In this document: in pieces, positions 1-51,333 of the stretch
Position numbering within the stretch: the first letter of the stretch is position 1
Layout of the letters: every line of letters starts with the position of its first letter
Origin: a virus
Lineage: Duplodnaviria; Heunggongvirae; Uroviricota; Caudoviricetes
IMG/VR virus record: IMGVR_UViG_3300007169_000056
DNA length: 64,000 bases
Reading direction: 5' to 3' (one strand)
Made by a program: the position numbers and the translations under genes
The notes under the pieces: generated by a model
Told to the model about the DNA's origin: nothing
Database searches by the model: none
Seen by the model: the letters and a program-made list of their open reading frames with translations, nothing else

Positions 1-28
1 GAGTGGAGTGAGTGGAGTGAGTGGGGGG
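1..28. repeat. short GAGTG-based tandem repeat followed by a G-run, truncated by the window edge
   Basis: gagtggagtga occurs twice in tandem then gtgggggg; read directly. Confidence 0.5.
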
Positions 29-79
29 TGGGCAGCGCAAATAACCTCTATGGGGATAGGGAGGGTTTTGTATATATTT
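27..79 (+). promoter_or_regulatory. conserved upstream module copy R1 (GGTGGGCAGCGYAAATA ... CTATRGRG ... GTATATTTAT then ATG)
   Basis: three near-identical copies at 27, 585 and 2380, each ending a few nt before an ATG. Confidence 0.6.
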
Positions 80-544
80 ATGAATAAGCATACAGAATAT
101 ATGGTAATGAATGACGAGTGGGTATTGAATAATAGTGCGTATACGTTATGTAGTTACATGGCGAATTATTTGGATATAAGGATACGGGATAGCAGTAAAG
201 ATTTGATAAGGTATAGTGGCATATTGGATTATTATGTGCGTAACGAGTATGGATATGAGTATCGTAGTAGTAGGAGAGTGAATGGTATAGTTGCGGGCAG
301 GTATATGATGGATCCATGGAACCGGGAGTTTTTGGTATTTCCGTATGAGCGTGGTATCAATATGGGTAAGCATGGATATGAGGGATATTTTAGTGATAGT
401 GTGTACAAGAACACGTATTATGGCAATGAGGTTAAGGGAGAGGTGAGTGATATTAAGCATAATGTTATGTTATTGACTACGACGGTGCATGGCAGAATGG
501 TATATTGTTTGGATATATTGGCTGGAACGTATGGTAATAGGTAA
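80..544 (+). CDS. hypothetical Tyr/Gly-rich protein
   Basis: start trimmed to the ATG right after module R1; coding strand is C-depleted. Confidence 0.35.
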   Translation: MNKHTEYMVMNDEWVLNNSAYTLCSYMANYLDIRIRDSSKDLIRYSGILDYYVRNEYGYEYRSSRRVNGIVAGRYMMDPWNREFLVFPYERGINMGKHGYEGYFSDSVYKNTYYGNEVKGEVSDIKHNVMLLTTTVHGRMVYCLDILAGTYGNR

Positions 545-584
545 ATGAGTGATTGTGTGAATACCGGGCGGATATTGTTGGTGG

Positions 585-640
585 GGTGGGCAGCGTAAAT
601 AATCTATCTATAGAGGGAGAGGAGTATATTTATAGAAAAT
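585..640 (+). promoter_or_regulatory. conserved upstream module copy R2
   Basis: GGTGGGCAGCGTAAATAATCTATCTATAGAGGGAGAGGAGTATATTTAT then ATG at 641. Confidence 0.6.
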
Positions 641-1375
641 ATGAGATATCGTGATTTTTTTGAGGAGACTAGTATGAGCGTCGATCTTTTGGAGAGTGTG
701 AATGATCGAGGTATATTTAAGGCTGTATTTTTTGCGGGCATACCGGGTGCTGGCAAGAGTTATGTATTGAACAAGATAAGTGATGGAGGGATAATGCCTA
801 GGGTGGTGAATACGGATATTTATACGGAGTATTTGAGCAAGAAGTTTGGCAGAGATATATCTGGTGAGTTTGACGTGCATGTGGATATGATTAAGAAGGT
901 GACGGTCAATCAATTATCAGGGTATGTTAACGGTGCGTTGCCGTTGTTTGTGGATGGAACCAGCAATAGTGCGTCTAGTTTATTTAAGAGAGAAGGAATA
1001 TTGAAGTCATTTGGTTATGATACTGGCATGGTATATATTGACACTGATTTGGATGTTGCTATAGAGAGGAGTAAGGAGAGAGATCGTAAGGTACCGGAGG
1101 AGTTTATACGTAAGGTATATGAGTCATTGAGTAAAAACCGTGAGTATTATAAGAATCATTTTGAGTTTTTTGTGGAGGTAAAGAATTCGGATGGTGAATT
1201 GACTGACAAGGTGGTGATGGATGCGTATAAAAAGGTTAGAGGATTTTATAGTTCGGATATACAGAATCCTATTGGCATTGAGAGCAAGAATAAGATGGTG
1301 AATGGATATTTGGTACCGTCTGTGTATAGAGACATAAGTTCTATAGTGCGTGCTGTTCGTGGGTGGTACAACTAA
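641..1375 (+). CDS. P-loop NTPase, putative nucleotide or polynucleotide kinase
   Basis: Walker A FFAGIPGAGKSYV near the N-terminus; 244 aa. Confidence 0.5.
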   Translation: MRYRDFFEETSMSVDLLESVNDRGIFKAVFFAGIPGAGKSYVLNKISDGGIMPRVVNTDIYTEYLSKKFGRDISGEFDVHVDMIKKVTVNQLSGYVNGALPLFVDGTSNSASSLFKREGILKSFGYDTGMVYIDTDLDVAIERSKERDRKVPEEFIRKVYESLSKNREYYKNHFEFFVEVKNSDGELTDKVVMDAYKKVRGFYSSDIQNPIGIESKNKMVNGYLVPSVYRDISSIVRAVRGWYN

Positions 1376-1380
1376 AATGT

Positions 1381-2334
1381 TTATTTGTAGAAGTCTTTAT
1401 AATTGACGCGTTCGTTTATGTCATCTTGTTTGGTTCGTACAAGGTAGCATAAAGAGTCTGTCCATAGTTCGTATATTTTTGGATCGGACATGAGTGTTTT
1501 TGCTTGAGACACGTCCATCAGTTGAATATCATTTTTAGTTGGATTGAACAAGTCGTCTAGGATATTGAGTATGCGTCCCTGAGTTTCTAACAAAAGCAAA
1601 AAGGTGGACATAAAAGACTGTTCACCAAATGTGTATGGCAAAACGATATGATGGCGATATGAAATGTCGTTTCCGTACAAATACAAGAGAGGTTGTATAT
1701 ATTGTTTATAATCAGTGTTGTTGATTTTTTGTAAAAACTCTAATGTTCGTGGCACATCTTTGTAGAAACCGTCGCTTGAAGGCAGTGAAGTCATTAGTAA
1801 ATTTGACATATCGACGATCCATTCTTTTAATTGTGGTATGTTATTGGTGTCATATATATTTTTCAGTTCATTAAGGTGTGGATGTGTAGTGTATAGTACA
1901 TTTAGTCCCCGTGCTAGATTTGAAACGAGTGATGTTGTATCGTATAATTCGAAAACTCTAAATGCGTATGTAAATTTTATGAAATCGTTTTTAATTTCCG
2001 CGACTGCTATTTTTGCGTAGTTTGAAGGAAAAACTTGAAAAGTGTGTGTTCCGTATAATTCTGTGTATGATTTGTTGTTGGAAAATATGATGCTTTTGCT
2101 TCTGGATGGATAATTTTTGTAACTTGGAAGATTATCCATCAGAACGTAGTATAAGTTGTTTGTGTCTTTTGAGGTGCGTGTAAGTTTTTGTGGGTTAATA
2201 AACAAACTATTTTCTGTATATTTTGCACCTCTATAACCGTGAAATCCATCTGGATATGTTTTTGAGAAATGTTTATCCAAAGTAGATTGAATTTTGTCCG
2301 GCGGCATTTTTACAGTTCTAAGGCTATGTTTCAT
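1381..2334 (-). CDS. hypothetical protein, only minus-strand gene in the left 11 kb
   Basis: maximal ORF reaches 2436 but would overlap module R3; internal Met (MKHSLRT) taken as start. Confidence 0.4.
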   Translation of the reverse strand: MKHSLRTVKMPPDKIQSTLDKHFSKTYPDGFHGYRGAKYTENSLFINPQKLTRTSKDTNNLYYVLMDNLPSYKNYPSRSKSIIFSNNKSYTELYGTHTFQVFPSNYAKIAVAEIKNDFIKFTYAFRVFELYDTTSLVSNLARGLNVLYTTHPHLNELKNIYDTNNIPQLKEWIVDMSNLLMTSLPSSDGFYKDVPRTLEFLQKINNTDYKQYIQPLLYLYGNDISYRHHIVLPYTFGEQSFMSTFLLLLETQGRILNILDDLFNPTKNDIQLMDVSQAKTLMSDPKIYELWTDSLCYLVRTKQDDINERVNYKDFYK

Positions 2335-2379
2335 GTGATATAAATACAAAATGGTTAGATATATATGTATTTTTTTGGT

Positions 2380-2436
2380 GGTGGGCAGCGTAAATATATA
2401 GGCACTATGGGTATATGGGGTATATTTATTTTGCAT
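2380..2436 (+). promoter_or_regulatory. conserved upstream module copy R3
   Basis: GGTGGGCAGCGTAAATATATAGGCACTATGGGTATATGGGGTATATTTAT then ATG at 2437. Confidence 0.6.
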
Positions 2437-3801
2437 ATGATAAAACTTGCGAATGTGGTGAATGAGATAATACCATTTGATAAGGCACCGGCGGTAAAAG
2501 CTGGATTGGTTAAGAAGTATGGCACGGGAGAGTTGGATGCTTATACGTTTGGAATAGAGTTTGAATATGAGCCATCTAGCAGTGAAGAGGTGGATGAAAA
2601 CAAGTTGCGACTTGAGTTAGAGAACAACAGTGAAGTAGATGGCAATTATAGTGAGTGGGTGGAGGAGCAGCGTCGAGATGTTAATCGTAGGATGTATAAT
2701 GATGTGAGCAGATGGGATAACAGTTATGGTCCTATAGATACAGATACGTATGACAGTTTAGTATCTGAGCCTGAACCGCGTGATTTTGAGACTGATGAAG
2801 AGTATGATAAGGCGTATGACCAGTGGAAGAGCAGTAGAGATGATGTTAAGTATGAGTATAATTATTGGTTAGGTCGGGATTTTTATGATTACCGTGATGA
2901 TTATATTAGTTGGATAATACGAAGTGGTGAGTGGGAGAGATATGTGGATCGTAGCAGTGTGGCTGACAAGTCATCTATTGAAGACAATGTGAGGGAGGCT
3001 ATGTCATATATACAGAATAATATGGGTGAGAATGTTCAGTATGGTGATGGTGGCAAGGATGTATGGGGAGTGGGTCCTGATGGAGACAACATTGAGATAC
3101 GAAGCAAGCATTTGAAGCAGAGTGAGTTTGAGTTGGTGAAGCAGATAAGTGATTATGTATCTGAGCAGAATGTTAGTGGAGGAACGAGTGCTCATGTGCA
3201 TATTGGGTTACCTGATGATTTTGATGCGTTTGATTTATTGGCGATAACGACATTGGTGGATGAGCGAGCGATCAAGAATCAAGTTGGGCCGGGGCGGGAT
3301 TTGGCATCATGGGCACAATTGAGAGACAAGTTGCATAATTCTATAGTAAACAAGTTGATAAAGACGCCGGAGAATCAGAGTACCAAAGAAAAGTCATTTG
3401 TATTGAGCAACGAGCGGTTATTTGTGTTGTTGAGTGATTTGGGTCGATATTGGGGTACCAATGTGGCTGCTATGAGAAGCAAGCGAACCATAGAGTTTAG
3501 ATATTTGGGTAGTCAGATAGCGAGTAATGTAGTGGCATTTATAAAATGGATACAGTATTATTTGTTGTTACCCAAGGTAGCGAAGAGTCGTAATAGTGTT
3601 ATATTGAAGCAGACTATAGGAATAGACAGTCAGAGTGTGACTGCGATACGTCAATCTGGGTCTGTTAAGTTTGTATTGAATATTGGTAGATATTCTACAT
3701 CTAATTTACCCGCGGCTGATTTGAAGAAGGGTACAATTGGAGTGGTTAGTCCAAAAATAGCACAAGCTAAAAAAGAAAAGATTGCAAAAATAAGTATTTG
3801 A
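2437..3801 (+). CDS. acidic hypothetical protein; N-terminus MIKLAN shared with the next two genes
   Basis: long ORF, start placed after module R3; D/E/Y-rich. Confidence 0.5.
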   Translation: MIKLANVVNEIIPFDKAPAVKAGLVKKYGTGELDAYTFGIEFEYEPSSSEEVDENKLRLELENNSEVDGNYSEWVEEQRRDVNRRMYNDVSRWDNSYGPIDTDTYDSLVSEPEPRDFETDEEYDKAYDQWKSSRDDVKYEYNYWLGRDFYDYRDDYISWIIRSGEWERYVDRSSVADKSSIEDNVREAMSYIQNNMGENVQYGDGGKDVWGVGPDGDNIEIRSKHLKQSEFELVKQISDYVSEQNVSGGTSAHVHIGLPDDFDAFDLLAITTLVDERAIKNQVGPGRDLASWAQLRDKLHNSIVNKLIKTPENQSTKEKSFVLSNERLFVLLSDLGRYWGTNVAAMRSKRTIEFRYLGSQIASNVVAFIKWIQYYLLLPKVAKSRNSVILKQTIGIDSQSVTAIRQSGSVKFVLNIGRYSTSNLPAADLKKGTIGVVSPKIAQAKKEKIAKISI

Positions 3802-3815
3802 TATTTATAACACAT

Positions 3816-5261
3816 ATGATAAAATTGAAAAATCTTCTTGCAGAAAATCCCGATACACTCAAATATGGTGGAAAACGGTATGGATATACAACTCCAGCGA
3901 ATCGGTCTGCGTTTTTTGTGTATCGTGACAAAAAAACAAACAAAACGGAGTTATTTGGTTATAGTGATATCAAAAAGGAGTTTTTTTCATCGGATCCCAG
4001 TGTTGTGGCCGAGATAAAAGAGGTGGAACAGAAAGATGGTGATAATCGTGATCATGACAAGTTGTATAATATCAATCGTTTGAGAAAAGGAAATAATGGC
4101 GGTGGGCATAGCAATTTGGAGAGTATATTGTATGATATAAAGCGTCTCGATGGTGACGCTATAAGTCGTGCTCGTATATTTGAGGTGGACGGTGAAGATG
4201 GCAAGAAGGTTATAATATGTAGTTTTTGGGATAACAAAAGTGTTGCGTTGGAATATATGGATTTTTGGAAACAGGCCATAGAGTTTAATGGATACAAACC
4301 CGAAGAGATATTGTATGAACCGTACATTAATTTGTATACATATGAACAGTTTATTGATCCAAACTATGTATCTAGACCCGACAAGGTACAAATCAGCAAA
4401 GGTGACATAGTTAAGGTTGGGGATAGAGTTGTGTATTATTACAATTCGTCTGATGCATCAGATCCATATAATCCAAGAGGTGTAATTGATAGTATTATCG
4501 ATAATGATCGTGTCACTGTTAAGTTTACCTTAGTTACCAATCCGGGTGGAAGATTTTTTGAAGGTAACATTATTGAGATATATCCTAGAGATTTGGGTGT
4601 GTGGAAAGAAACACCAAAACCAGTAGAGGTTCCGAAACCAGAACACCCGGCTAGTACGACCAATAAAGATTTTTCAGTTGGTGATATTATAAAGTTTAAG
4701 TATTTGAATTTATATGCTAAGATATTGTCTATTGAAGATGATGAAGCGTATGTTGAAATAGTGCGTACATCCAATCAAACGCCTTATGTGAGTGTAGGCG
4801 ATCGGATTTATTATAAGTTGTCTGGGTTTCACAAAGCATCCTCTACCACACCGGAGGAACCTATTGCTCCGATATTGGATAATAAAACGGATATATTTAT
4901 TGAAAAACGTGCTCAATTACATACAACGGCTGCGCGATTTACTCCACAAGAAAAGCAAAATTTGGAACGTGAAGTTGATATGTTGGAATTTGAGATCAAG
5001 AAGTTGCAGTCATTTATTGACAGTGGTATTACTACATTGAATGATGATCGTAAGAAGGAATTGGAACAATATGTCAAGGATGAGATGGCTAAAAAGCATT
5101 CTGAAAAGAAGGATAGATATAGTTTGATAGCTCAGGCTGAAAAGCAGTATGGAATGCCTATAGCACAAATACGTCAAAAGTTTCGAGGAGTACCATTGGA
5201 TCAGTTGGTTAAAAAAGAGTCATTGTATAAGAGAATGATGAAACAACAGATTATGTTGTGA
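3816..5261 (+). CDS. hypothetical protein, paralog family member 1 (MIKLKNLL N-terminus, ...MPIAQIRQKFRGVPLDQLVKK C-terminus)
   Basis: shares N- and C-terminal motifs and an ISFW motif with the 5269 gene. Confidence 0.55.
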   Translation: MIKLKNLLAENPDTLKYGGKRYGYTTPANRSAFFVYRDKKTNKTELFGYSDIKKEFFSSDPSVVAEIKEVEQKDGDNRDHDKLYNINRLRKGNNGGGHSNLESILYDIKRLDGDAISRARIFEVDGEDGKKVIICSFWDNKSVALEYMDFWKQAIEFNGYKPEEILYEPYINLYTYEQFIDPNYVSRPDKVQISKGDIVKVGDRVVYYYNSSDASDPYNPRGVIDSIIDNDRVTVKFTLVTNPGGRFFEGNIIEIYPRDLGVWKETPKPVEVPKPEHPASTTNKDFSVGDIIKFKYLNLYAKILSIEDDEAYVEIVRTSNQTPYVSVGDRIYYKLSGFHKASSTTPEEPIAPILDNKTDIFIEKRAQLHTTAARFTPQEKQNLEREVDMLEFEIKKLQSFIDSGITTLNDDRKKELEQYVKDEMAKKHSEKKDRYSLIAQAEKQYGMPIAQIRQKFRGVPLDQLVKKESLYKRMMKQQIML

Positions 5262-5268
5262 TAATTGT

Positions 5269-6342
5269 ATGATTAAACTTAAAAATTTACTTGTTGAGGG
5301 CAGCAATTTGAAATGGATTTTGGGCTATGTAGACAGCTATGGAAAGGTTCATTACAAAGTTGTTGGTAAAGATGATTCTATAGACAGTCACAATCAAATC
5401 TGGCCGGGACCAAAACATGGCAAGTGGCGGTGGATGCCTGGCAACCCTTCACATTTGAATACATATGGTGAAGAGTTGTCGTTTGAGGATGAAGATAGAA
5501 TTTGGAAGATCATAGACAAGTATAAATCGTTGAGTGAAAGTCCTGATGGTGTATATTATGGAAACAACGAATATAGTTGGTATGATGATGGGTTATATAC
5601 GTTTTTAGTATATAATGATATTGTTGACAACCAGCGATATTGGTTTGCGTGGGATTATAGTAAAAAGACCATATTGTGTGAAAACAAACAAGTTGAAAAT
5701 GAAATATTACATACGGATGATACTGTATTGACTGCTATAGAAAAAAGAAGTAGTGACGGGAATTTTTCTTATCGAAGTATATCAAGTGTTTTTAACGATC
5801 TGTTGGACAGACCAACACATCATAATTTGATAGGATTATTGAGCACACTGAAACGTTGTTACGATAGTCGTGAGTATGCTGAATGTGATGGTCGTGTATA
5901 TGGTGTGAAGGGTGAAGACAAGTATATTATTAGTTTTTGGCAAGAAGATTCGGAGATTATCAAAGATCGAAACAAGTTGGATGATTTCTTTAATAGGGTT
6001 GGTATTGATAAAAACAAAATATTGTTTCAAAGATTTGATCGTGAAAACACTGTAAACTACTATCAATTTTTTGGAACCAAACCACCGGAAATTAGTGATG
6101 TCGAACGTCAGAAACAACAGATAGCCAGAGACTTGCACATGAAAAAAGCACAGTTAGATAAGGCTATATTGGATGCGTTGCAGAGCAAACCCAAGGATAT
6201 TAACAGTTTGTATGCTGCGTTAGAAAAACAATTAAACATGCCTTTGGCTAAGATAAAGCATGTATTTAGAGGAATACCGTTGGATAAGTTAGTGGTGAAA
6301 CAGTTGAGAGAATTTGTTAGCCGGGTGGGTATAAAAAATTGA
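5269..6342 (+). CDS. hypothetical protein, paralog family member 2 (MIKLKNLL ... MPLAKIKHVFRGIPLDKLVVK)
   Basis: paralog of the 3816 gene by direct protein comparison. Confidence 0.55.
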   Translation: MIKLKNLLVEGSNLKWILGYVDSYGKVHYKVVGKDDSIDSHNQIWPGPKHGKWRWMPGNPSHLNTYGEELSFEDEDRIWKIIDKYKSLSESPDGVYYGNNEYSWYDDGLYTFLVYNDIVDNQRYWFAWDYSKKTILCENKQVENEILHTDDTVLTAIEKRSSDGNFSYRSISSVFNDLLDRPTHHNLIGLLSTLKRCYDSREYAECDGRVYGVKGEDKYIISFWQEDSEIIKDRNKLDDFFNRVGIDKNKILFQRFDRENTVNYYQFFGTKPPEISDVERQKQQIARDLHMKKAQLDKAILDALQSKPKDINSLYAALEKQLNMPLAKIKHVFRGIPLDKLVVKQLREFVSRVGIKN

Positions 6343-6370
6343 CCCTCTATAGTGTGTGTGGTATGTTTGA

Positions 6371-6646
6371 TTGGATATGAACAAATCCGAGTATTACGGC
6401 ATTATATTTACAATATTGTTTAATATTGGTCCATTGTTTCAACTGTGGGCAATTTTCAAACATAAAAGTAGTTACAATGTTAGTATTGTCATGTGGGTAT
6501 TGGGCTTCATAGGTCAGATATTTGTATTGTTGTATTTGACCGAAAACAACGTCACTGGAATATTCAACTATATCAATAGTGGAATTGGATTATTATTGAA
6601 TATGATTATTACGGTGATGATTTTGGTATATCGTAACAAAAAATAA
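6371..6646 (+). CDS. small 3-TM membrane protein, PQ-loop / SemiSWEET-like
   Basis: 91 aa, three hydrophobic helices, GPLFQLWAIFKHKS resembles the LPQ..K.KS PQ-loop motif. Confidence 0.35.
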   Translation: MDMNKSEYYGIIFTILFNIGPLFQLWAIFKHKSSYNVSIVMWVLGFIGQIFVLLYLTENNVTGIFNYINSGIGLLLNMIITVMILVYRNKK

Positions 6647-7053: not shown

Positions 7054-7056
7054 GTG

Positions 7057-7088
7057 TAGTGTTTCATATCCGTAACACTCTTTTTTAT
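7057..7088 (+). terminator. putative rho-independent terminator
   Basis: agtgtttcatatccgtaacact hairpin followed by a T-run. Confidence 0.45.
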
Positions 7089-7098
7089 ACTTATATCT

Positions 7099-7833
7099 AT
7101 GAAAGTAAGATCATTATTTTTAAGTGACGTACATTTGGGTGGTGATTATTGTAACCACGAAAAATTGCTTGAGTTGATAAGTGTAATTGAGTGTGAAAAC
7201 CTGTATATTGTTGGTGATTTTATTGATGGTTGGGTGTTGAAACGGAGAATGAAATGGCATTCTAACTATAACACTGTAATTCAAAAAATACTAAGAATGA
7301 GTCGTAAAGGTGTTAATGTTGTGTATTTATGGGGCAACCACGATGATTTTCTGGAACCATTTGATGGTGCTTATTTTGGAAGTAATATTTCTATAGTTCG
7401 TGAGACGGTACACATTACACTAAAAAATGAACGTATACTTATACTTCACGGTGATCAATTTGATGGAATTGTTACAAAAAACAAGTGGATACAAAAAATA
7501 GGAGCTGTAATATATGATTACAGTTTACATTTGAATAAACTTTTTCGTGTATTTAAGTTCAGCTTTAGCAACTTTCTAAAACAAAAAGCAAAAGAAGCTG
7601 TAAAATATATTTCTAGTTATGAGGACACAATGATTATGTACTGTATTAATCATGGGTATGACTCTGTACTATGTGGTCACATACACAAACCTGAATTGAA
7701 AAATATAGAAGGTGTAAACTATTACAATACAGGTGATTGGGTTGAGAACAACACTTTTGTTGTTGAAACATTAGATGGTGATATTAAATTATTAACGTAT
7801 GAAGATTTTATTCGGAGTTCAAACAGAGGGTAA
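7099..7833 (+). CDS. LpxH-like calcineurin-family metallophosphoesterase (UDP-2,3-diacylglucosamine hydrolase family)
   Basis: LFLSDVHLGGD, IVGDFIDGWV and WGNHDDF metallophosphoesterase motifs; N-terminus aligns with LpxH. Confidence 0.6.
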   Translation: MKVRSLFLSDVHLGGDYCNHEKLLELISVIECENLYIVGDFIDGWVLKRRMKWHSNYNTVIQKILRMSRKGVNVVYLWGNHDDFLEPFDGAYFGSNISIVRETVHITLKNERILILHGDQFDGIVTKNKWIQKIGAVIYDYSLHLNKLFRVFKFSFSNFLKQKAKEAVKYISSYEDTMIMYCINHGYDSVLCGHIHKPELKNIEGVNYYNTGDWVENNTFVVETLDGDIKLLTYEDFIRSSNRG

Positions 7834-10081: not shown

Positions 10082-10113
10082 CCCCACAAGATTGAGTTCT
10101 TGTGGGTTTTTTA
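10082..10113 (+). terminator. rho-independent terminator
   Basis: cccacaagattgagttcttgtggg hairpin followed by tttttt. Confidence 0.8.
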
Positions 10114-10149
10114 TTGACCCAACTATATCTATAAGATACGTTATAACTT

Positions 10150-11159: not shown

Positions 11160-11408
11160 TTGACAAAAAGCATTAGTATCTACTATATTATTAGCACTAT
11201 GAAGATTAGATTCTTAAAAAACATGGATATAGATATTGACAAGACCAACTTAAAAGAAGTATGGCCTCGTTATATTAATCGTAACGACATTTACAATGTT
11301 GACAAAATCGAAAGCATTGATAGTAGGTTTGTCAACTTGGTATTGGACAACAATGATGTGTTGTTGGAAGTACCCGTAGATAGTTTTCAGTGTATAAAAA
11401 GTAGATAA
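11160..11408 (+). CDS. hypothetical protein
   Basis: ORF only. Confidence 0.3.
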   Translation: MTKSISIYYIISTMKIRFLKNMDIDIDKTNLKEVWPRYINRNDIYNVDKIESIDSRFVNLVLDNNDVLLEVPVDSFQCIKSR

Positions 11409-13435: not shown

Positions 13436-13539
13436 ATGTTATAAATATCCACAAGTGGGTGATGTTATCTAAATAAATTAAACAGTCTTGGTGTTATAAA
13501 ATTGACAACACAATACATATAGACTATAAGTATAACAAA

Positions 13540-16987: not shown

Positions 16988-17094
16988 AATCTAATTTGAT
17001 CTTTGTGAAATGTCAATAATATATAGTTGGACACATTTTTATTCTTGACCAAATAGTTCTTGACGCTAATAAAATGTGATGATACGTTCGGAAT

Positions 17095-24886: not shown

Positions 24887-24904
24887 AAAAGTCCAAAAAA
24901 CCTA

Positions 24905-24932
24905 TTGACTTTTCAAAAAACTCTGGTACATT
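24905..24932 (+). promoter_or_regulatory. sigma70-like promoter (TTGACT, 16 nt, TACATT) placed for a leaderless ligase mRNA
   Basis: -10 ends 6 nt before the ATG at 24939. Confidence 0.45.
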
Positions 24933-24938
24933 CTTATC

Positions 24939-37101: not shown

Positions 37102-37278
37102 ATGGAACAAACTCCATACGATAAAGGACGTGCGTATTGTAAAAATACGCATGGAATGAACAAATATCTTGAGGACAACCCGTATGATCCTAAAACAGAG
37201 GAATATACTCAGTGGAGAGAAGGATTCCAAGACGAACGGGTATCGCATCTTGAAGGATATGAAGAATACTACTCTTGA
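37102..37278 (+). CDS. small hypothetical protein
   Basis: preceded by aaagtaactctATG, identical to the 37873-37886 leader. Confidence 0.35.
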   Translation: MEQTPYDKGRAYCKNTHGMNKYLEDNPYDPKTEEYTQWREGFQDERVSHLEGYEEYYS

Positions 37279-37308
37279 CTTTCTACAAACACAGTGATAG
37301 TGTATAAT
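37275..37308 (+). promoter_or_regulatory. repeated promoter element copy 2 (TTGACTTTCTACAAACACAGTGATAGTGTATAAT)
   Basis: same TTGACTTTCTAYAAACA core; TATAAT 3 nt before the ATG at 37312. Confidence 0.4.
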
Positions 37309-37311
37309 CAC

Positions 37312-43042: not shown

Positions 43043-43360
43043 ATGAATACAAAGACAAGTTACATCAAAGACGAATCGTATTATGCTGAAGCTGAATCGA
43101 TGCAAGATGGTTGGGGTGATACATTGCGTTGGATTGATGTTTTGAAAGACAAAATTCAATATAAGAAAGAAATCACTCTCAAAGAATTTTGTTATAGTTT
43201 ATATGGCGATGGTTGGTGTAGTCATACGTGGGATGCGTTCAAGATGTATTGTGAAGAAGAATTGAAGTATTCACGTAAGCGGTTGGTTTATGATGCTTGG
43301 AAAGGTGTGTTTGACAAGTGGGTAAACACAGAGTATGATCGTAGTAAATTCTATCGATGA
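43043..43360 (+). CDS. hypothetical protein
   Basis: start trimmed to MNTKTSY. Confidence 0.4.
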   Translation: MNTKTSYIKDESYYAEAESMQDGWGDTLRWIDVLKDKIQYKKEITLKEFCYSLYGDGWCSHTWDAFKMYCEEELKYSRKRLVYDAWKGVFDKWVNTEYDRSKFYR

Positions 43361-43361
43361 T

Positions 43362-43571
43362 ATGACCAAACCTATTGGAGCAACACAAAAACAACTTGAC
43401 GACAACGATATTGAGTGGGTATTGTGCGGAAGTTACAATATTGGTATGAATAAAGGTCCAGAGAAATGGGCATTACGTCACAGCACTGAATATGAATGGG
43501 CTAAGGAACGAACAATGTTGTTGCAAGAAATTGCTAATTTGAAACGAATCAATAAAAGTCTACAAAATTAA
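43362..43571 (+). CDS. small protein carrying repeat module A (KPIGATQKQLDDNDIEWVLCG...ERTMLLQEIANLKR)
   Basis: cgaTGAtATGa junction; paralogous to the C-terminus of the 50815 gene. Confidence 0.4.
   Translation: MTKPIGATQKQLDDNDIEWVLCGSYNIGMNKGPEKWALRHSTEYEWAKERTMLLQEIANLKRINKSLQN
43368..43556 (+). repeat. direct repeat module A (left copy) bracketing the small-gene array
   Basis: shares the 36-nt identical core gaacgaacaatgttgttgcaagaaattgctaatttg (43506-43541) with 51262-51297. Confidence 0.7.
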
Positions 43572-44114: not shown

Positions 44115-44681
44115 ATGAACCGCCGAAAATTTATTACATCAACCGCACGTGCATTGCCATCAGTGACAGTGCTTGGTGCAATATCAACTCAACTTACCAA
44201 GACTTATAGAAGTCCAAAAAGCGTCTTTACAAATGAAGAATTAACTGAGTGGTGTGAAAAGAATGGTGGTCACTACGCTCAAGACAATGAATTGGTATAT
44301 GCTTATTATCAGACAAGTGATAGGGAATATGACCCAAAAAGTCCAAATGCGTATAAAGATCCATATAAGTCATTTAGACATTTGATTTTTCATATTCCAA
44401 CAGAATGTGATAAATACGAAGCACTCAATCGGTGGTTGGTATTTTATAGCCACAAGTATGGCAGTTATAGATTCATCATCAAAGACATCTATTATCCAGA
44501 TTATGTGATTGAAAATACCAAAATGATGCCTTTGATTGCGTCAACCAGAGAATATCCCAACGGTAAATCGCATGGATTTGGTTCTCCGATTTTTGATATC
44601 AAATCACACAAATACATTGTTCCAACATTTGAAGAACTGGATGAACGAACACTCAATTTTACAGGATTCAAATCTGTATGA
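44115..44681 (+). CDS. hypothetical protein, paralog B (FTNEELTEWCEKNGGHYAQDNEL)
   Basis: shares motifs with the 49518 gene. Confidence 0.45.
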   Translation: MNRRKFITSTARALPSVTVLGAISTQLTKTYRSPKSVFTNEELTEWCEKNGGHYAQDNELVYAYYQTSDREYDPKSPNAYKDPYKSFRHLIFHIPTECDKYEALNRWLVFYSHKYGSYRFIIKDIYYPDYVIENTKMMPLIASTREYPNGKSHGFGSPIFDIKSHKYIVPTFEELDERTLNFTGFKSV

Positions 44682-49517: not shown

Positions 49518-49949
49518 ATGATAATACCCAATACTTCATGTAGAAGTGCTACGAGTTTGTTCACAAATGAAGAATTGACTGTCTGGTGCAAAAATAACGG
49601 TGGACATTATGCACAAGAAAATGAACTAAACAGTGTGTTTTTTGAACAACAATATGAACAATGTGTTGAGGTTTATAATACACTTGATCCAGATTTTATC
49701 CGAAAATATGATCATCTAAATGATTTTCTTGATATTCATAGAACCAATATCGCTAGATACAATCGTTATATCACAAGAAAGAATAACAACATTCGGTTTG
49801 ATATATTTGACGGCGATCCATTTATTTCTGGATTGGATTTAATATATAATTCCAACAGATTTGTGATCAAAGACGTGTATACAAAACCAAGTATTATTTC
49901 ATTTCGATATGTAATAGATGGTAGAAGATCCGACAAACAAAAAGATTGA
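49518..49949 (+). CDS. hypothetical protein, paralog B-prime (FTNEELTVWCKNNGGHYAQENEL)
   Basis: shares motifs with the 44115 gene. Confidence 0.4.
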   Translation: MIIPNTSCRSATSLFTNEELTVWCKNNGGHYAQENELNSVFFEQQYEQCVEVYNTLDPDFIRKYDHLNDFLDIHRTNIARYNRYITRKNNNIRFDIFDGDPFISGLDLIYNSNRFVIKDVYTKPSIISFRYVIDGRRSDKQKD

Positions 49950-50818: not shown

Positions 50819-51333
50819 AAGCGAACACACGACCGATTGTTAAACCGTGGGTAGTAAGCAGTTTAAAAAAATCTATAGACGAATATTTGTATAGTATGGC
50901 AGAAAAGGAAAATCGATGTTTACACGATTCGTGTTTAGAGTGTAATGGAACAGGAACAAACAAATATAACGGACAGCCGTGTGTCCATATGATAAGTTGT
51001 AGATGTAGTAAATGTTCTAGCGGGGCACAAATAGAACCATGGATTATGAAAAAAGTTGACGAATCTTTACGAAACAGATTTCCGGATAGAGAAAGTCGAA
51101 CATTGCCTTTTGAAAAAAATATGAATAAACCCATCGGTGCAACACAAAAACAGTTGGATGACAACAATATCGAATGGGTATTATGCGGCAACTATGGACA
51201 TAGAGATACCCAAGAACCAAAATGGGCATTGCGTCATAGCAGTGAATATGACTGGGCGAAAGAACGAACAATGTTGTTGCAAGAAATTGCTAATTTGCGT
51301 AGACAGATAACACGATTGGAAGGTTTGACATGA
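50815..51333 (+). CDS. Cys-rich protein with C-terminal repeat module A-prime
   Basis: CLHDSCLECNGTG, CRCSKCS; C-terminus KPIGATQKQLDDNNIEWVLCG...ERTMLLQEIANLRR. Confidence 0.45.
   Translation: MKANTRPIVKPWVVSSLKKSIDEYLYSMAEKENRCLHDSCLECNGTGTNKYNGQPCVHMISCRCSKCSSGAQIEPWIMKKVDESLRNRFPDRESRTLPFEKNMNKPIGATQKQLDDNNIEWVLCGNYGHRDTQEPKWALRHSSEYDWAKERTMLLQEIANLRRQITRLEGLT
51127..51310 (+). repeat. direct repeat module A-prime (right copy)
   Basis: 36-nt identical core at 51262-51297 matching 43506-43541. Confidence 0.7.

Follow-up and report, generated by a model that had tools for sequence, protein, structure and literature searches.

A repeated, oriented 55-nt module before early genes of an uncultured jumbo phage: a candidate promoter cassette without a -35 hexamer

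At the left end of the 64,000-nt stretch analysed here (the window; IMG/VR record IMGVR_UViG_3300007169_000056, Caudoviricetes), a module of about 55 nt stands three times, each time directly before an ATG (positions 80, 641 and 2437). What machinery, if any, reads such an element? The preliminary description of this DNA had offered promoters for a T7-type polymerase, early promoters like those of phage N4, or binding sites for a regulator. The contig from which the window comes exceeds 200 kb, and its source is a member of an uncultured clade of giant (jumbo) phages, and no close cultured relative of the phage was found. Comparison of the three copies with each other and with related loci leads us to favour, with a probability of roughly 0.55, a reading in which the module would be a portable, factor-dependent promoter cassette that lacks a -35 hexamer, gives rise to mRNAs with a short leader or none, and serves in addition as a joint for recombination.

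Three copies in the window

The 17-mer that opens the module (GGTGGGCAGCGYAAATA, box A) has exact matches at 27-43, 585-601 and 2380-2396, all on the + strand, when both strands of the 64 kb are scanned, and no further match was found on either strand of the window at up to three mismatches. Three matches were reached in 0 of 100 dinucleotide shuffles. A profile hidden Markov model (HMM) of the whole module returned the three known copies only (E = 3e-16, 8e-15 and 7e-11), which bears out the three + strand copies first described; additional copies of the kind expected of a dispersed repeat, in both orientations or inside coding regions, were not found in the 64 kb. The matches to GGTGGGCAGCGYAAATA precede the ATGs at 80, 641 and 2437 by 53-57 nt. 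The ATG at 80 can be taken as the true start of open reading frame 1 (ORF1), because the ORF1 residues H4 and Y7 are invariant among 30 homologs.

In copy 1, box A (27-43, GGTGGGCAGCGCAAATA) consists of a block found across the clade (block 1, TGGGCAGCG) and a lineage-specific AT-rich hexamer, CAAATA; block 2 (45-65, CCTCTATGGGGATAGGGAGGG) has at 50-52 an upstream ATG that shares its frame with ATG 80, and box B (70-79, GTATATATTT) abuts ATG 80. Copy 2 has the same order, with box A at 585-601 (GGTGGGCAGCGTAAATA), block 2 at 604-624 (CTATCTATAGAGGGAGAGGAG, with ATA in place of the upstream ATG) and box B at 624-633 (GTATATTTAT), whose TATATT (625-630) ends 10 nt before ATG 641. Copy 3 lies in the divergent intergenic region between ORF3 and ORF4: box A at 2380-2396 (GGTGGGCAGCGTAAATA), block 2 at 2405-2420 (CTATGGGTATATGGGG) with an upstream ATG (2407-2409) in frame with ATG 2437, and box B at 2420-2429 (GTATATTTAT), where TATATT (2421-2426) again ends 10 nt before the ATG. 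All of these elements are on the + strand. The two blocks can also be cited by their cores, TGGGCAGCG and CTCTATATGGGG. Directly 5' of copy 1, positions 1-26 (+) hold a G-run with GAGTG repeats, a hypervariable tract in which relatives that are 98% identical differ by indels and substitutions.

The three copies are not conserved evenly. In box A, 50 of 51 positions are identical, the following 22-26 nt contain indels and are identical at about half of their positions, and box B, GTATAT(AT)TTAT, is conserved again in all three. This pattern argues for selection on the copies and against a recent duplication. The centre of the module, CTATRGRG, looked loosely positioned in the window: box A and CTAT are 4, 6 (or 2) and 8 nt apart in copies 1 to 3, and CTATRGRG and GTATAT are 14, 8 and 7 nt apart, so that the originally proposed spacer formula (N8-9 and N8) is only approximate. 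Copy 3 reads CTATGGGT and copy 1 GTATATATTT.

The cassette in related phages

ORF1 homologs of 58-68% identity gave access to the syntenic loci L110, L111 and L112-L117, and relatives whose ORF1 is 58-81% identical carry one to four cassette copies per locus, always on the + strand and rightward, just right of a divergent control region, and each before a different gene. L110 has a copy at 320-367 (E = 8e-11 with a clade-wide profile). L111 has copies at ~4225, 5352 and 7178, of which the first-gene copy is degenerate; the other two were recovered at E = 3e-6 (5352-5414, window-lineage profile) and E = 6e-5 (7178, clade-wide profile). L112 has four, two of them in tandem 29 nt apart (~4990 and ~5019) and two at ~6537 and 7755; the first three were found with the window-lineage profile, whose matches are at 4987, 5015 and 6533. 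A partial copy is present at position 573 of L018 and a further copy (copy 1) in L025, both on the + strand. The view of the module as a strictly oriented, gene-proximal signal of promoter type was sustained by these loci: it is non-palindromic and conserved across the clade.

The clade consensus consists of a G-run, TGGGCAGCG, 16 variable nt and (CTC)TATAT followed directly by GGGGAGGG. The CTATRGRG centre, which the preliminary description had singled out, is thus a genuinely conserved block and, as CTCTATAT followed by GGGGAGGG, the best conserved one clade-wide. The YAAATA tail of box A is confined to the window lineage, and G-rich tracts like that of the window also precede the cassette in L110-L112. 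In all seven outgroup copies TGGGCA and the G-run are 19 nt apart, although the sequences between them vary (CTAATGGT, ATATGC, ATATTC, CTACTCC, ATAATC and ATAAAC). Even within L112 the 6-8 nt between the blocks differ, reading CTAATGGT in L112a, ATATGC in L112c and ATATTC in L112d.

By their distance from block 1 to the ATG the copies fall into two classes. In the short class it is 51-55 nt, as in the three window copies and those of L025, L111b and L112d; this class has seven entries and six distinct modules, because L007_1 is the ortholog of window copy 1. In the long class it is 82-90 nt; in L110, in L112 copies of this class and in L111's degenerate copy before the first gene, the extra length holds a complete promoter, TTGACR-N18-TAGNNT. 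Relatives of ORF4 at 60-65% identity keep the gene fused into an operon that has no cassette, so the cassette does not depend on the presence of ORF4 nor always accompany it.

ORF2 and ORF3, which copies 2 and 3 flank in the window, are both absent from the relative L025. The junction there consists of the left flank of copy 2, one degenerate chimeric module and the right flank of copy 3. In this copy, which stands before ORF4, box A is mutated to GGTGGGCAGTGAAAAAT and a consensus TATAAT has arisen 8 nt downstream, a change that fits the replacement of one promoter by another.

In more distant relatives (L026, L027, L108 and L011) the best weak box-A-like match is in each case syntenic, non-coding and on the + strand, yet individually non-significant (E = 1.3-32), and these motifs are a lead only. 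They take the form GTGCGC-N1-2-GCGYAAA(A)TA, with one or two per control region (L027 5335-5420, L026 4000-4060 and L108 6170-6205), and are partly paired with GCGCAC to give a palindrome with a 6-bp stem and a 3-nt loop; in L027 their spacing is ~32 nt. The same control regions hold, directly 3' of a sigma70-type promoter, a conserved non-coding block of the form GGCGGCGACAC...CAGGACGACCGAAAGGCTCCGAGGGTAGRGGACCGGAG..TGCGCA..TTAACGAT (L026 3585-3735, L027 4940-5095, and duplicated in L108 at 5785-5895 and 6280-6395). This block has no Rfam match and may, by its conservation, be a phage small RNA. On the left, the control region of L108 is flanked by minus-strand homologs of rIIA (phrog_612, E = 2e-88) and rIIB (257-3616), which ties the clade, if loosely, to large myoviruses of the T4-like and jumbo kinds.

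In IMG/VR the exact 17-mer has three single matches, a chance level, and in GTDB genomes (596 Gb of bacterial sequence) it matches 77 loci, 76 of them once, where a rough chance expectation is ~140. The remaining locus, a triple match in a Clostridia metagenome-assembled genome (L059 3057-4756), is unrelated and lies inside tandem repeats of an ORF of 2060 amino acids, a chance match multiplied by a protein repeat. Protein-based locus searches of IMG/VR and GTDB returned nothing, blastn and tblastn against GenBank phages gave no match for the DNA or ORF4, and a literature search on the motif strings found unrelated primers only.

The promoter reading and its alternatives

The phage uses the host polymerase, because many near-consensus sigma70-type promoters are present in the window: 19 promoters of the form TTGACN-N16-18-TAnnnT lie within 120 nt of a gene start, and in 12 of these the -10 hexamer ends 6-11 nt before the ATG. 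Examples are found at 10113-10149, 11160-11198, 17050-17094, 24898-24938 and 37275-37311. An SD-like (Shine-Dalgarno-like) core precedes only 49 of 131 genes, and mRNAs that are leaderless or nearly so appear, from these start regions, to be the rule in this phage.

Against this background the module is incomplete as a canonical sigma70 promoter, in which TTGACA and TATAAT are 17 ± 1 nt apart. Hexamers resembling a -10 element are present (AATAAT at 598-603, TATATT at 625-630 and 2421-2426), but the corresponding -35 positions read ATCTAT, TAGGCA and TGGGGA, and the best score in a sigma70 promoter scan of the module was 9/12, in copy 3 only. Two AT-rich hexamers stand where a -10 element would be expected. 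Hexamer 1 directly follows block 1 (CAAATA/TAAATA, AATAAT or TATATA in the window, GATAAT-like in the outgroups) and stands 6 nt (window) or 9 nt (outgroups) before the conserved ATG or ATA of (T)ATGGGG. Hexamer 2, the TATATT-like part of box B, is separated from the ATG by 8-13 nt in window copies 2 and 3, L111b and L112d, distances that fit the geometry of the phage's ordinary promoters. Neither hexamer has a -35 partner in these copies. ORF4 nevertheless needs a promoter of its own, because the gene preceding it is on the minus strand, and the 100 nt of divergent intergenic sequence between the two contain no TTGACN promoter.

Box B has a wider distribution than box A. TATTTAT occurs within -25 to +2 of the start codon of nine genes (ORF1-5, 11435, 11819(-), 14382 and 18180), all in the first 18.2 kb, and of none of the other ~100 genes, often in the context (G)ATATTTAT-N4-7-(C)ATATG. 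From this distribution box B is therefore a wider, region-specific start context that is independent of box A. A start context shared with the genes at 3816 and 5269 had been proposed; the former does have it (TATTTAT...CATATG), whereas the latter has only the ATGATTAAA (MIK) start in common.

The order, orientation and spacing of the two blocks (G-run plus TGGGCAGCG; (CTC)TATAT followed by GGGGAGGG) are fixed. Because spacing is kept over a variable spacer, orientation is strict and block 1 has no dyad symmetry, the cassette is best explained by recognition on DNA by an asymmetric machine, that is, a transcription complex. We propose that an RNA polymerase holoenzyme reads the cassette on double-stranded DNA, directed by a factor other than the contact of sigma70 region 4 with a -35 element; the factor might be an alternative sigma, a polymerase of the phage, or a phage activator or sigma-appropriator that works as MotA and AsiA do in T4. 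Transcripts would begin at the conserved (T)ATGGGG, ~7 nt past hexamer 1, or else ~7 nt past box B, and either start would give leaderless or short-leadered mRNAs, as with the phage's ordinary promoters. The frame opened by ATGGGG runs into the main ATG (copies 1 and 3) or stops overlapping it (L025, L111b and L112c); for all five short or internal copies that keep the ATG, the joint shuffle probability of this relation is ~0.004, a value obtained post hoc and from partly non-independent copies, and we regard the pattern as a curiosity that would support a start at ATGGGG. Because it is repeated, the cassette would also provide a joint for homologous recombination by which genes move together with their expression signal.

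T4 middle promoters combine a MotA box with a sigma70 -10 element and are used by sigma70 remodelled by AsiA; the box, (a/t)(a/t)TGCTTtA, is centred at -30, and lies 11-13 nt upstream of TAnnnT. The module resembles them in having a -10-like hexamer and no -35, so that a phage-specific upstream sequence could replace the -35 contact, in serving early genes that can also be reached from upstream host-type promoters, and in belonging to a group whose distant members carry rIIA and rIIB. It differs in that TGCTT, and with it the MotA box, is in no copy, its blocks are longer, G-rich and bipartite, and the window yielded no homolog of MotA or AsiA.

If it is a promoter, the cassette would be the recognition sequence of a transcription factor or sigma-like activity in a jumbo-phage clade that has no cultured member and almost no annotated early genes. 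It would offer a handle for finding that factor and for dating the expression of the genes downstream, among them a P-loop kinase and an amidoligase. In metagenomic contigs of the clade, the profile of the cassette shows where the rightward early block begins. The phage adds a case in which leaderless or near-leaderless mRNAs are the apparent rule, which hints at a host with SD-independent translation. A bolder combination of these elements posits a dedicated, novel mode of transcription in a clade of uncultured, mostly freshwater jumbo phages, in which a phage factor reads a bipartite G-rich signal that has no -35 hexamer, TGGGCAGCG-N16-TATAT followed by GGGGAGGG, and starts the mRNA at a leaderless AUG(GGG), whose frame reaches or stops on the real start codon; a 55-nt unit mobile by recombination would thus combine the start of transcription, leaderless entry of ribosomes and the delivery of genes. 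This we put forward tentatively, as rather unlikely in its entirety.

Several observations weigh against a promoter. The spacing from TGGGCA to the G-run is not rigid in the window lineage (17, 20 and 21 nt). Box B cannot be the -10 hexamer of all copies, since at copy 1 it abuts the confirmed ATG 80. In L110, L111 and L112, where a complete TTGACR promoter follows the first-gene copies, the cassette might just as well act as an operator or activator site upstream of it. L007 has a rightward sigma70-type promoter upstream, and a promoter of this type could transcribe through copies 1 and 2, so that a promoter is strictly required at copy 3 only. The search for an encoded RNA polymerase or sigma factor called for at the outset found neither among the ~118 ORFs of the window (64 kb of the contig of more than 200 kb), nor was a helix-turn-helix (HTH) or other DNA-binding domain found there. 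Finally, the proposed transcription start sites are predictions from sequence.

Of the alternatives, the one that survives best, although we consider it unlikely, is that blocks 1 and 2 form an operator rather than a promoter core, bound by a phage or host regulator such as a repressor of early genes, beside ordinary promoters; the adjoining host-polymerase promoter would be formed by the -10 hexamer of box B or by the downstream TTGACR promoters. The complete sigma70-type promoter 7-8 nt downstream of the cassette in L110, L111 and L112 is in keeping with such an arrangement, block 2 (CCTCTC-TATAT-GGGGAGG) is an imperfect inverted repeat, tandem copies such as those in L112 are often seen with operators, and the weak box-A-like motifs of the distant control regions adjoin a GCGCAC-N3-GTGCGC palindrome. 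An operator fits less well with a non-palindromic block 1 and an element strictly oriented to its gene, with a position relative to the nearest -10 hexamer that differs between the short and long classes, and with the lack of any detected DNA-binding domain in the window; it would also leave ORF4 with a very weak promoter, as copy 3 has no -35 hexamer.

A role in RNA is less probable again. The cassette would then act within a polycistronic early transcript, as a processing site, as a ribosome-loading leader (SD-like GGAGG with an AU-rich tract) or as a short upstream ORF from which ribosomes pass to the main ATG. GGAGG is indeed present in every copy, the frame relation of ATGGGG to the main ATG would suit an upstream ORF, and the rightward promoter upstream in L007, with no terminator seen between ORF0, ORF1 and ORF2, would suit a common transcript. 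However, 15-50 nt separate GGAGG from the ATG, an upstream ATG is missing from copy 2 and L112d, and spacing kept constant over a variable spacer is seen more often where DNA is recognised. The long-class cassettes of L110, L111 and L112 have a complete sigma70-type promoter between cassette and gene, so its transcripts exclude the cassette. Nor is there a stable or conserved fold: no hairpin was found at box A on either strand, folding z-scores of the copies range from -0.4 to +0.2 over both strands, those bearing on an RNA element being -0.1 to -0.4, and the consensus fold (alifold) of 11 cassettes reaches -0.5 kcal/mol, with no meaningful covariation. An Rfam scan, which covered the relatives' loci L007, L011, L026 and L108 and not the window itself, gave only a tRNA and one sub-threshold leader match elsewhere, so neither approach points to a structured cis-regulatory RNA.

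Doubtful to a slightly greater degree is a promoter for a single-subunit RNA polymerase of T7 type, phage-encoded or delivered with the virion, that would start at the G-run after (C)TATA(T). Promoters of the T7 group read CTCACTATA followed by GGGAGA, which the clade consensus, CTCTATAT followed by GGGGAGGG, resembles; at the putative start the clade has TATAT before GGGGAGGG and window copy 2 has TATA before GAGGGAGA. The preliminary description had likened the module to such promoters and to those of N4, whose early promoters for the virion RNA polymerase are three DNA hairpins with a stem of 5-7 bp and a 3-nt loop. The N4 analogy extends to three clustered copies of one orientation before the first genes of an early block and fails on the hairpin, which no copy has. 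A second likeness is that of TGGGCA..CGTAA in the window lineage to the Syn5 promoter, ATTGGGCACCCGTAA (PMC3950665). Taken together, the resemblances to the T7 group and Syn5 are an AT-rich TATA(T) before GGG(G)AG and a GGGCA motif upstream; Syn5-like promoters, too, are few, only ~2 per genome (PMC11880802). The Syn5 alignment, however, needs a 1-nt gap, and the CGTAA part is not conserved in the outgroup cassettes. Membership in the T7 group is not upheld. Rather than one contiguous element of about 17-23 bp from -17 to +6, the same in all promoters of a genome, conservation is split into TGGGCAGCG and CTCTATATGGGGAGGG by a variable spacer of fixed length, and the equivalent of -16 to -9, which ought to carry polymerase specificity, varies within one genome (L112a, c and d), the conserved block lying further up at about -25 to -17. 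There are three copies in 64 kb, and the window has no RNA_pol domain and no ORF above 539 amino acids, the length of its largest; many consensus sigma70-type promoters imply that the phage depends on the host polymerase.

That the module is a repeat without a role in expression, a recombination scar or a joint kept only by mediating cassette exchange, is highly improbable: although copies 2 and 3 flank ORF2-ORF3 and L025, without this gene pair, has one chimeric copy, conservation is block-wise with fixed spacing down to 58% ORF1 identity, conserved C residues persist in a strongly C-depleted strand, and orientation and distance to the ATG are constant.

Other known elements were compared as well. 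The T4 late motif (TATAAATA at -10) is not matched, since box A reads CG(T/C)AAATA and the outgroups GCGCTAATGG, GCGATATGCC and GCGCTACTCC. Exact T4-late-type TATAAATA octamers do occur on the + strand at 2339-2346, 34 nt upstream of box A of copy 3, and at 13440-13447, where the octamer is the reverse complement of the TATTTATA start context of a minus-strand fibre gene. By-eye comparison with consensus sequences for sigma54, sigma32, extracytoplasmic function (ECF) sigma factors, sigmaB, SPO1, NtcA, LexA and lambda nut gave no fit.

The closest precedent for mobility is the promoter-early stem-loop (PeSL) cassette of the T4-type phages RB49 and phi1 (PMC2839356, PMC4122927), which joins a consensus sigma70-type promoter (-35 and -10) to a terminating polyG...polyC stem-loop and occurs ~50 times per genome (PMC2839356, PMC4122927). 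Like PeSLs, the module is a short repeated regulatory cassette immediately before orphan early genes, and both motifs include G-runs. Window copies 2 and 3 compare with the single chimeric copy of L025, the relative that lacks the gene cassette, as the two copies flanking RB49 ORFan192 compare with the one in phi1 (PMC2839356). The module differs in having no -35 hexamer and no stem-loop, and in its three copies per 64 kb, all in the first few kb right of one control region. It would extend the idea of mobile regulatory cassettes beyond sigma70-type promoters and classical T4-like phages.

Genes and surroundings of the module

The window encodes genes for salvage of nicotinamide adenine dinucleotide (NAD), Tad3, a DNA ligase, a collagen-like fibre and many orphan genes. 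Copy 1 serves ORF1 (80-544, +), a protein of 154 amino acids without a known family or recognisable fold, and copy 2 serves ORF2 (641-1375, +), a P-loop kinase related to Zeta toxins and polynucleotide kinases. ORF3 (1381-2334, -) is convergent with ORF2 across a 5-nt gap, with no terminator seen between them. ORF2 and ORF3 match neighbouring parts (254-454 and 26-245) of one 788-position PHROG profile, phrog_12810; other phages presumably carry the two domains in fused form. A protein of the Ralstonia jumbo phage RsoM2USA shares 49.5% identity with ORF2 and is likewise followed by a convergent gene; no significant cassette match came from searching that locus with the profile. ORF4 (2437-3801, +), amidoligase-like (PF12224 in its homologs), heads a run of + strand genes. 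The next two, ORF5 and ORF6 (3816-6342), are paralogs with a common MIKLKNLL N-terminus, a middle domain and a C-terminal motif (44% over 57 amino acids), and ORF4 has only the MIKL start in common with them. A terminator-like hairpin was spotted, by eye only, at ~7054-7085.

The left end of the window had been read as the end that enters the cell first. The relatives L007-L009, which are 98% identical, continue leftward with a small gene, a ~600-nt non-coding control region that has sigma70-type promoters in both directions, and then leftward genes (helicase, GP88). The contigs L025 and L005 and the window all begin in or next to the hypervariable G-run/GAGTG tract 5' of box A, and the left end is, judging by these sequences, a contig end, on which the terminal position rested. 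In L007 (7394-7431) the first small rightward gene probably starts at 7429 rather than 7384; from 7429 it would be leaderless, transcribed from TTGACG-N17-TATGAT (TG-extended). The leftward block of L007 has a tRNA gene (59 bits; 2639-2712, minus strand), and the 64-kb window has none.

The compositional distinctness reported for the left segment is real: over 1-3700 the + strand is C-poor, with 7.5-12% C, ~30% G and a GC skew of up to 0.58. Because the depletion also spans the minus-strand ORF3, it is a property of the DNA strand and not of codon or mRNA composition. The same depletion is seen in L007 (7380-11400) and in L011 (from ~1600), and in relatives its onset is abrupt, at the control region, the left part of which is C-rich. 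An asymmetry of mutation at an origin could explain it, and so could a tendency to avoid G+C palindromes.

Further right, 35166-60000 is dense in genes related to NAD and counter-defence, with NAMPT, phosphoribosyl pyrophosphate (PRPP) synthetase, NAD synthase, NADAR, two NUDIX proteins, the Thoeris inhibitor Tad3, PTH2 and a nucleoside deoxyribosyltransferase; to its left are SET-domain, PAS, radical SAM and dCMP deaminase genes. Diverged duplicated segments, 76-92% identical and ~5-8 kb apart, pair 43360-43541 with 51119-51297 and 44207-44291 with 49541-49625, indicating probable paralogous gene families in this block of small genes.

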